DNA of 64,000 bases from Lama glama (GCA_028534125.1 CM052816.1:4962001-5026000), one strand, 5' to 3'; positions 5,201 through 8,200 are shown, counted from the stretch's first letter. The notes: generated by a model from the letters alone, not told the origin. A program made the numbers and translations.

Positions 5201-8200
5201 AACTGCTGCTCTGGGATCTCACTCTGTCTTGGAGACGGAAATATACCCTCTTCAGCGCTTCATCAGAAGGGCAAAATCATTCAAGAATTGTGTTTAATTT
5301 ATGTCCTCTACAAACCGAGGATGACAAACAGCTGCTGCTTTCCACGTCAATGGACAGAGATGTAAGAACAGCTTGTTTTGCGTTCAGCATTGTTGAGCAC
5401 TGATGTATGACTCCGATGGGAGTAGAGGACTTTTCCAAAGCATGCATCAGCTCTCACACCTGACCTTACCTCCAGTTCCAATTTGAGAATTACTGTTACT
5501 ATTCAGCACCAAAAACATTATCAGGAGAGAAATAAGGGAAAGGTTAGGAGCCACCAAGATGCCTTATGTTAAAGTAAATATCATAAGTAAGACTAGATAT
5601 GTCCATGGGGGATATATGAGATCGTCATGGTATAGCTTTAAAATACCCTTATCTGTAGTTTAACCATCTGCTCTTCATGAAATCTCTGTGGTAGAGAACT
5701 GACTTTATTTAAGAGACCTTACTATTTTGCAATTAAGCTAGGCTTGTTTGGTGTACTTTTCCTCCTAAGCCCATGTGTTAATTAAGAGACAGTTACAAAC
5801 TTAGCAGTCCTCTTCTACTGGGGGGGGGGGGGAATCTTGCATGATACCACTACACCAGCGGCGCTACTTCCTCTTCTACTGGGTATGATAACATATTTAG
5901 CTTTTTGAGATAAGAACGCTGATTCTTCCATTGTCCTGAAGCCATCTTCATTCTTATTTAGAGTTTGGCAAATGAGAAGGTTACCAATGCTGTAATAGAA
6001 CAGAATGGAAAGGCCACTGAACTCTTAATTTTGTGACCCTCAATTCACTTGACATCTCAGGGAATAAATGTATTCTGAGATCCCTTTGAGGATTTTTTTT
6101 CTAAGACACTTTTTCCAATTCCTACTGAAATAGTTAAATCACATTATCCTAATGCACTTTTTGAGCCCATCCTACTTATATTGTTGATTCTTTTTCTTCT
6201 TTCTGTGATCTTTATAAAGGCCGTAACCCTTAATCTTTTACAGGTAAAATGTTGGGACATGGCCACCCTAGAGTGCTGCTGGACCCTGCCTTCCCTTGGA
6301 GGGTTTGCCTACAGTCTGGCTTTCTCTCCTGTGGACACAGGCTGTTTGGCCATAGGCGTTGGGGATGGCATGATCCGCATCTGGAATACACTCTCCATAA
6401 AGAACAACTATGATGTGAAAAATTTTTGGCAGGGTGTCAAGTCCAAGGTTACAGCGGTAAGGATGCTTTCTTTGAGCTTGTCATGAACAATTTTCAAATA
6501 AGTAATTCTCTTTTAGAGAATACTTGTTCATATACTTGAACTACTAGAAACTGAAAAACTTCTTCAAGGGTATTTTCAATGAAGCTTGAAACTAGGAAAG
6601 CAGAAGGACCCTCTCTAAACCCATTACCTCCTAATTCAGAAATCTGGCTTTGTAAAATTTAGGCTTTGTTCAAGTCACTCTGTTTTCTAATAGTAAGAAA
6701 TTGGAAATAACCTCAAAGTACATTCATACGAGATACATTAAGTTATAACCACACGTTGGAATGGTATCAGACTATTAAAAGTGATAATGTTGATCTTTCT
6801 TTGATATGGGAACATGTTAATGATTCATGAAAAATGCAAATTACATAACCTTTAATGAAAAAGAATATGAAAAGGAATATATGTATACATATGTGTGGCT
6901 GGGACATTATGTTGTACATCAGAAATTGACACGTTGTAACTGACTACTTCAATTTAAAAAATATTCAAAGGGAAGTTTGAAAAAACTAAAACACATGGAG
7001 CTATTTGCCAGTCCCCCCCCAAATGCAAATTACCAAACATGGAATGCAGATTACAAAATAATAATATGTATAATTTTTTTGTTTTTCTCCAAATTGAAAT
7101 CCCTGTTGTGGCTGTTTAGTCTCAAAAAAAAAAATGTTTGTAGTTTAAAAAGAAAACCACAATACAGAAATGTAGAAAACAAAAGATGTTTCCAACCCCA
7201 CCCTCAACTACATTCTCCCCTGTCCATCATCCAGAGAACCACAGTGGACAGTTTGTGGTGTATCTTTCCAACTTTACTTAGTTATTAATAGAATCAGTTT
7301 CTAAATTTTTCTGGTATCTTGTTATCCCCACTCAACATCATTTAAATGTTTGAACCTATTTTTGTTTCTTTAAATTGTATTTTCAAAACTTTATTCACAA
7401 AAAGATGTCTGGAAAGATACAAAATTGTCAGTGGGGTGCTTTGGATGGTGAGATTACTGGTGACTTTTACTTTGTTTTTAATATTTCTTTGTTTCTCTCT
7501 TTTAAATGAATTTGTTACTTTTAAAATTAGAAGACACCAAGAGCAAGAAAGTTTTCCAGTTGAACACTTGAAGAATAACCTAAGGCTTCCCTTAACACTG
7601 CCCTTTCACCATATTTTTTTGTAGCTGTGCTGGCACCCAACCAAGGAAGGCTGCTTAGCTTTTGGAACTGATGATGGAAAAGTGGGATTGTACGACACCT
7701 ACTCCAGCAAGTAAGAAACAGATGATCGTTATTTAGCTCATTGGCCAACATGTCAGTGACGGAGTTAATTTTGAGATGACAAACCCGGGTGTACGTCATA
7801 ATAGGCCTGGGAAACATCTGTAAGATTCTGACTCTGAGACTGAGGCTTAATATTTTAAAATTTTGAAAAGTTTTTTAGGTGATGTTGGTTCAGCCCATCT
7901 GACCTGTACGAACCACTGTTACAAAACATTTGCTTTTGTTTTCCCTCAATATTTTTTTTACAAAAATTTTTCGGCATCCAAGAATGTTAAAAGCCTGGAA
8001 CAGAGAACACCTCTGTACCTTCCATCTAGATTCACCAGTTGTTAACATTTTGCCATACTTGCTTTATTTGTGTGCACTTCTGAAAATAAACAGTAATCCA
8101 TGATATGACCTAATATCCAGAGCATATACAGACTTCCTCAGTTAAGCCCTATTTTTCCTAGCTATTCTTTTTCAAACCTCTTTTCAGCCAGGGTTTTACA

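Follow-up and report, generated by a model that had tools for sequence, protein, structure and literature searches.

The window, i.e. the whole 64-kb stretch of DNA that was analysed, carries part of GEMIN5 on its + strand. For two open frames of this strand, 5176-5400 and 6079-6483, the PDB chains matched are named Gem-associated protein 5 (E values of 1.5e-31 and 5.1e-46, respectively), with near-identity along 59 and 73 WD40-domain residues. The first corresponds to a WD40 exon at 5194-5361, whose start is that of the PDB alignment and not a mapped splice site, and the second to a downstream exon at 6244-6459, whose end is likewise that of the PDB alignment. The + strand intron lying between them (5362-6243) opens with gtaaga from 5362 and runs up to an acag ending at 6243 (ag at 6242-6243). 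The internal repeats of the downstream-exon PDB alignment show the same WD40-like motifs. Besides, further WD40-like frames are found on the + strand from about 2039 to at least 18397 (2039-2245, 2389-2556, 3969-4109, 13575-13931, 16906-17178, and 18164-18397), and, judging from their sequence, these look like successive GEMIN5 exons; the first exons of the gene fall outside the window.

The intron contains an inserted retrocopy of 46 bases (4 + 35 + 7), oriented antisense to GEMIN5 and flanked by two copies of the 15-bp direct repeat TCCTCTTCTACTGGG (as read on the + strand), which are 100% identical and represent a target-site duplication (TSD). The sense of the insert being the - strand, the repeat copy at 5808-5822 adjoins its 3' end and the copy at 5869-5883 its 5' end, the two agreeing over 15 nt with 0 mismatches. 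Between the repeats, the minus strand reads first the 4-nt leader AGTA (5868-5865), a fifth leader base, A, being shared with the end of the TSD, then 35 nt (5864-5830) equal to positions 1-35 of tRNA-Gly(CCC), that is, the acceptor 5' arm, the D arm, the 5' side of the anticodon stem, and the loop as far as the third base of the anticodon, and finally seven extra C (5823-5829, G on the + strand). The latter are a filler templated by neither the tRNA gene nor the target, and their placement is arbitrary within the run of 13 G that occupies 5820-5832 of the + strand as assembled, the length of a homopolymer being uncertain in assemblies. This run is made up of 3 bases of the TSD, 3 of the anticodon, and the 7 extra ones, and it is the sole G or C run of at least 10 bases in the 64-kb window. 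Inspection of the 3' side of the insert revealed no A-rich tail, the tail consisting solely of C. Both CpGs of the 35-nt tRNA part are intact.

Chance alone would give about 0.005 perfect 15-mer direct repeats separated by at most 100 nt in a sequence of 64 kb, while two non-simple ones are present in the window. The 5808/5869 pair brackets an exact tRNA match, and a chance origin of this pair is excluded. The other one, CACTTAAATACACTG, is found at 23411-23425 and 23445-23459 with a spacing of 34 nt, and may be either the TSD of a very short insert or a product of chance. As expected for half a tRNA, neither ARAGORN nor Rfam calls a tRNA at 5808-5883, and an Rfam search of 5700-6000 at E up to 10 returns merely a chance mir-84 match (E 6.4). 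With 35 of 71 nt present and no call by either program, a functional tRNA gene is discarded; the same applies to the remnant of a retroviral primer site, which would consist of the 3' 18 nt of a tRNA and not of its 5' half. The insert possesses a box A, box B and a terminator being absent, and it is probably not transcribed by itself. Of the two splice sites of the intron, the 5' one is about 446 nt away from it and the 3' one ~360 nt away; at more than 350 nt from either, the insert shows no sign of an effect on GEMIN5, nor does its antisense complement show any sign of a consequence, and it is most likely neutral intronic DNA.

The origin of the 35 nt can be traced within the genome searched, which amounts to 2.35 Gb in 1,072,352 contigs, the window lying on contig C1. 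Exactly two full-length matches to Gly(CCC) are present in this genome, L003 (genome G000, contig C10) and L005 (contig C3). Both are intact 71-nt tRNA-Gly(CCC) genes, in which ARAGORN places the anticodon at position 33, each scoring 61.6 bits with the Rfam tRNA model and each followed by a T run within ~10 nt on the 3' side. The tRNA part of the insert equals positions 1-35 of the two genes (35/35), its last base being the third of the anticodon. Directly upstream of the gene, L003 has the four bases AGTA and L005 has GTCA, and since the insert shows the flank of L003 and not that of L005, it carries the 5' leader of L003. The expectation that the copy starts at the mature, RNase P-processed 5' end therefore failed, a 4-nt leader of the source gene being present, and the template was an unprocessed pre-tRNA rather than a half of the mature tRNA. 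Derivation of the window copy from L002, another half copy having the same leader and a C run, was also considered and rejected, as no sequence past the C run is common to the two.

Several statements of the first-pass annotation are borne out by these data. It had described a retro-inserted 5' part of tRNA-Gly(CCC) with a TSD and without poly(A), in agreement with the 35/35 match to the genome's own genes and with the 15-bp repeat, and it had placed the end of the copy exactly at the anticodon, which position 35, the third anticodon base of L003 and L005, confirms. It had also proposed a GEMIN5 host with an antisense insert, whose pre-mRNA carries the complement of the tRNA 5' part, and the frames on both sides do match Gem-associated protein 5. 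Finally, the check that it suggested on AGTA as a pre-tRNA leader proved positive, these being the four bases before the L003 gene.

The window copy is not isolated in the genome. A search with a 27-nt pattern from the tRNA half, allowing at most 3 mismatches, returned 27 matches, against 0 for the reversed control pattern. Of these, 2 are the intact genes, 15 are half copies located on large contigs, among them the window copy, and the remaining 10 are small contigs (L006-L010 and L013-L017) of 222-322 nt, which overlap mutually at 97-100% and fall into two variants distinguished by a single substitution and by a gap of 4 nt where the anticodon meets the TSD. With a common leader AAAGTA and TSD ATATGTAGATTT, the ten small contigs look, from their overlaps, like one heterozygous locus kept as redundant assembly bubbles; taking them as one, the half copies total 16 loci. 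When the whole gene with its flanks was used as query genome-wide, no full-length retrocopy and no 3' half were found, and all 20 non-gene matches end at query 63-68, corresponding to tRNA positions 33-38. The anticodon loop is hence the end point at 16/16 half loci, and the full anticodon is kept in all of them. A script detected TSDs of 8-17 nt with 0-1 mismatch at all 16 loci; in the table of TSD scores, the 17th row of which is the second variant of the heterozygous locus, a score of at least 9 was reached in 15/17 rows versus 0.9% of 340 mismatched flank pairs. Identity of 35/35 to the genes together with perfect TSDs is observed at three loci (the window copy, L002, and L004), the other 13 being at 30-33/35 with one or both acceptor-stem CpGs lost in most.

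The leaders of these copies are informative about their templates. The exact 4-nt leader of either gene is present in 8/16 loci, for which the chance probability is ~2e-13: AGTA at three loci (the window copy, L002, and the heterozygous locus) and GTCA at five (L004, L011, L019, L020, and L038). The GTCA copies start exactly at the G (5/5) and the AGTA copies at an A, at -4 to -6, and, from this pattern, the starts of the leaders look like Pol III start sites. As the copies include the leaders of primary transcripts, their templates were nuclear precursors with unprocessed 5' ends. Without any RNA data, the leaders of the 16 copies would thereby map the Pol III starts of both Gly-CCC genes, namely G at -4 for the L005 type (5/5) and A at -4 or -5 for the L003 type. 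Four old copies, L012 (G000 C6:227200), L018 (C5:48729228), L027 (C4:71871163), and L034 (C36:42656795), share a leader ending in AACA. No intact Gly-CCC gene with such a leader is present in the assembly, and the sequences suggest a third source gene that has been lost, has changed, or is unassembled.

This anatomy recalls a class of elements described in human. According to Noll 2015 (PMC5322556), in its summary of Schmitz 2004, tailless retropseudogenes are truncated in loops and inserted at sites complementary to the last 2-18 nt of the RNA, their consensus target is TT/WAAAAWW, and internal priming is preferred over pre-cut RNAs. Among the human copies of Table S2 of Noll 2015, 16 are labelled GlyCCC and span 29-38 nt. 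As far as the class is documented there, the insert resembles its members in being a 5'-complete, 3'-truncated tRNA copy that ends in a loop, in the lack of an A tail, in its TSDs, in its unprocessed precursor leader, and possibly in a target having bases in common with the end of the RNA, the tRNA species and the length being also those of the 16 human GlyCCC entries. It differs from them, as they are described, by the G/C target of the window copy in place of the A/T-rich TT/WAAAAWW, by the 7 extra C at the priming junction, and by a host species other than human. Judged from its sequence, the insert has the defining features of the class except the A/T-rich target, LINE-1 mobilisation and the pairing of the target with the RNA end being putative.

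A comparison with tRNA-derived SINEs leads to another conclusion. Like them, the insert has a tRNA head with box A and TSDs, and would have been spread by a LINE machinery, which is putative in its case. However, it is devoid of a box B and of a body, its tail is neither LINE-like nor A-rich, only 16 loci are present, and the half copies were each made afresh from tRNA genes, as shown by their two leaders, and not from a master element. A tRNA-derived SINE was accordingly rejected, the insert being a 39-nt tRNA part followed by C's, without a tail, at one of 16 loci that carry the leaders of two genes.

To analyse the target sites, the empty site was modelled as the upstream flank plus one TSD; the junction counts come from a manual reading of the junction table, and the statistics were computed separately. 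A C stands at the target junction, either opening the TSD or directly preceding it, in 14/16 loci (p = 4e-4). Besides, a T lies directly 5' of the inferred nick, on the sense strand, in 12/16 loci (p = 3e-4), with TT in 7 of these. T or TT on the sense strand corresponds to |A or |AA on the nicked strand, as at L1-type sites. The window copy belongs to the 4 exceptions, with ATA|CCCAGT on the sense strand and GGG|TAT on the bottom strand. This target fits neither TT/WAAAAWW nor TTTT/A, in line with the earlier remark that it is unlike the L1 consensus; that consensus is a statistical preference and not a requirement. The non-canonical target of the window copy, together with the untemplated-looking filler at one junction, would also be compatible with an L1-independent event, in which a stray tRNA cDNA was captured as filler at an end-joined double-strand break. 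Yet the clean 15-bp TSD of the window copy and the 8-17-bp TSDs at all 16 loci are indicative of staggered nicks, and the T before the inferred nick in 12/16 family members also argues against such a capture, which is given hardly any likelihood at all.

The insert is much more probably a tailless retropseudogene, i.e. a dead-on-arrival by-product of LINE-1 target-primed reverse transcription, and a high degree of confidence is attached to this reading. In this model, the template would be the unprocessed primary Pol III transcript of the L003 gene, with its start located 4-5 nt before the mature 5' end (AGTA or AAGTA). The + strand of the GEMIN5 intron would be nicked after ACTGGG, the 3' GGG thus liberated would anneal to the single-stranded CCC anticodon, and the RNA would be reverse-transcribed from the anticodon as far as the pre-tRNA 5' end. 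The TSD would then result from a second nick at a distance of 15 nt, and the seven extra C/G would arise either from realignment of the GGG:CCC pairing at initiation or from later slippage of the homopolymer. With respect to the first pairing, the abstract of Monot 2013 describes L1 priming on poly(A) as efficient when 4 terminal bases match, and shows nothing for G:C priming.

The bases shared by target and RNA bear on whether priming occurred inside a longer RNA. In the nine filler-free copies, a mean of 2.67 nt (range 0-5) is common to the target and the loop around the end point, and these common bases include tRNA bases 37-39 in 7/9 copies. A target that matches bases 37-39 implies that RNA beyond the anticodon was needed, with the caveat that a leading A is also an L1 preference. 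This two-sided match agrees with priming within a longer RNA, the model preferred in Noll 2015. In the window copy, the TSD opens with CCC, identical to the anticodon, and the 7 extra C intervene, so that the overlap is not directly visible.

The main alternative to internal priming starts from a pre-existing 5' tRNA half, cut after C36 in the anticodon loop, whose 3'-terminal CCC would have annealed to the nicked target before being copied. The first-pass annotation had favoured this view by regarding the insert as the fossil of a germline tRNA half. Presence of the full anticodon in all 16 loci, none of which stops earlier in the loop, speaks in its favour, as does the tRNA part stopping exactly at C36 in the 6 copies with a C-rich filler. 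With respect to the tRNA body, 5' tRNA halves and the copy extend equally over positions 1 to 35. The difference lies at the other end: the genomic copy has, in front of the tRNA part, the leader of the primary transcript, and mature halves have none. Angiogenin-type halves derive from mature tRNA, and the exact leaders in 8/16 loci, the window copy included, denote an RNA that was not 5'-processed. As a mature cytoplasmic tRNA half would be without a leader, the leader of the copy makes the half reading less likely. In addition, the 7/9 filler-free copies whose target matches bases 37-39 would need RNA past C36, again with the reservation that the leading A is an L1 preference as well. In the same line, truncated intermediates of 5S and U2 RNA were sought and none was found, according to Noll 2015 (PMC5322556). 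In view of the leaders and of the target matches past the anticodon, we infer that internal priming on a pre-tRNA is likelier, and the fossil of a tRNA half, as first proposed, is regarded as unlikely.

At the 3' junction, a filler separates the 35-mer from the TSD in 7/16 loci, and 19/23 filler bases are C: seven C in the window copy, C in L002, C in L011, CC in L012, CTCCG in L019, CACCCC in L038, and A in L032. The A of L032 equals tRNA base 37, and the C-rich filler thus concerns 6/16 loci. A search for other Gly-CCC halves with C tails had been recommended at the outset, and one extra C in L002 and L011, two in L012, and the C-rich stretches of 5-6 nt in L019 and L038 show that they do exist. 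Overlapping C's, as simple GGG:CCC pairing would give, are observed in L004, L036, and the heterozygous locus. The 13 C of the window copy, versus the 3 to 6 expected from simple GGG:CCC pairing, go against such simple pairing in this case. The extra C would stem either from a G:C hybrid so short that it realigned repeatedly during initiation, or from later expansion of a C6-C7 run.

One could however wonder whether the run of 13 G, and perhaps the duplication too, was created by errors of sequencing or assembly, the contigs being fragmented and built from short reads, so that the real allele would have ~6 G or no insertion. Homopolymer lengths are error-prone in sequencing, the assembly retains redundant bubbles among its 1,072,352 contigs, and no other G/C run of this length is present in the window. 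On the other hand, the same anatomy recurs at 15 other loci, hence the insertion itself is genuine, and sequencing run X1 contains 0.99 of the sampled words of 5300-6400, although X1 may be the source sample and not an independent one. An artefact is consequently considered highly improbable.

The C-rich filler might be the footprint of reiterative copying, in which the GGG:CCC hybrid would slip and be re-extended several times before the L1 reverse transcriptase commits; together with the three 35/35 copies and their perfect TSDs, this would suggest that tailless retroposition was recently active in the lineage and that the window copy is possibly polymorphic. This proposal is put forward tentatively, as one that is more doubtful than probable. 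Should it be true, the filler would directly record, in the genome itself, that initiation is unstable at a priming site other than A; a homopolymer filler is predicted solely for homopolymer anticodons. In the abstract, Introduction, Results, and Discussion of Noll 2015 (PMC5322556), no mention of a C or homopolymer filler was found, and the word 'slippage' has 0 occurrences.

Regarding the age of the insertion, zero differences are counted over the 39 nt compared to the source and over the 15-nt TSD pair. Substitution rates are of the order of 1-2.2e-9 per site per year. Assuming this range, with or without a tenfold weighting of CpGs, the zero differences give a bound of only about 13-43 Myr at 95%. 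No second contig carrying the flanks, as an empty allele would provide, was found in the assembly, in which the flanks matched their own place alone, a weak indication given that bubbles are not always kept. The shares of sampled words of 5300-6400 are 0.99 for X1, 0.84 for the other runs of organism A, 0.88-0.91 for organism B, and 0.81-0.85 for organisms C, D, and E; these values fit an empty site with few SNPs and a filled site with more SNPs alike. If the site proves to be empty in relatives, the insert would offer a clean presence/absence marker for phylogeny or population work. By itself it carries little weight, being one more neutral intronic retrocopy from a class that has been catalogued in thousands in human. 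The C-rich filler is the sole loose end of note, in that it provides a small, testable hint on how reverse transcription starts at a non-A site.

Elsewhere in the window, two N runs, at 31440-31539 (100 bases) and 56122-56621 (500 bases), correspond to assembly gaps. Three tRNA-like matches were also recorded, at 62993-63065 on the - strand (ARAGORN Ala(AGC); Rfam 45.6 bits for a gathering threshold of 29), at 45633-45705 on the - strand (ARAGORN Leu, anticodon tag; Rfam 34.9 bits), and at 59905-59977 on the + strand (Rfam 33.6 bits); instead of being working genes, they may represent heads of SINEs or pseudogenes of tRNAs.
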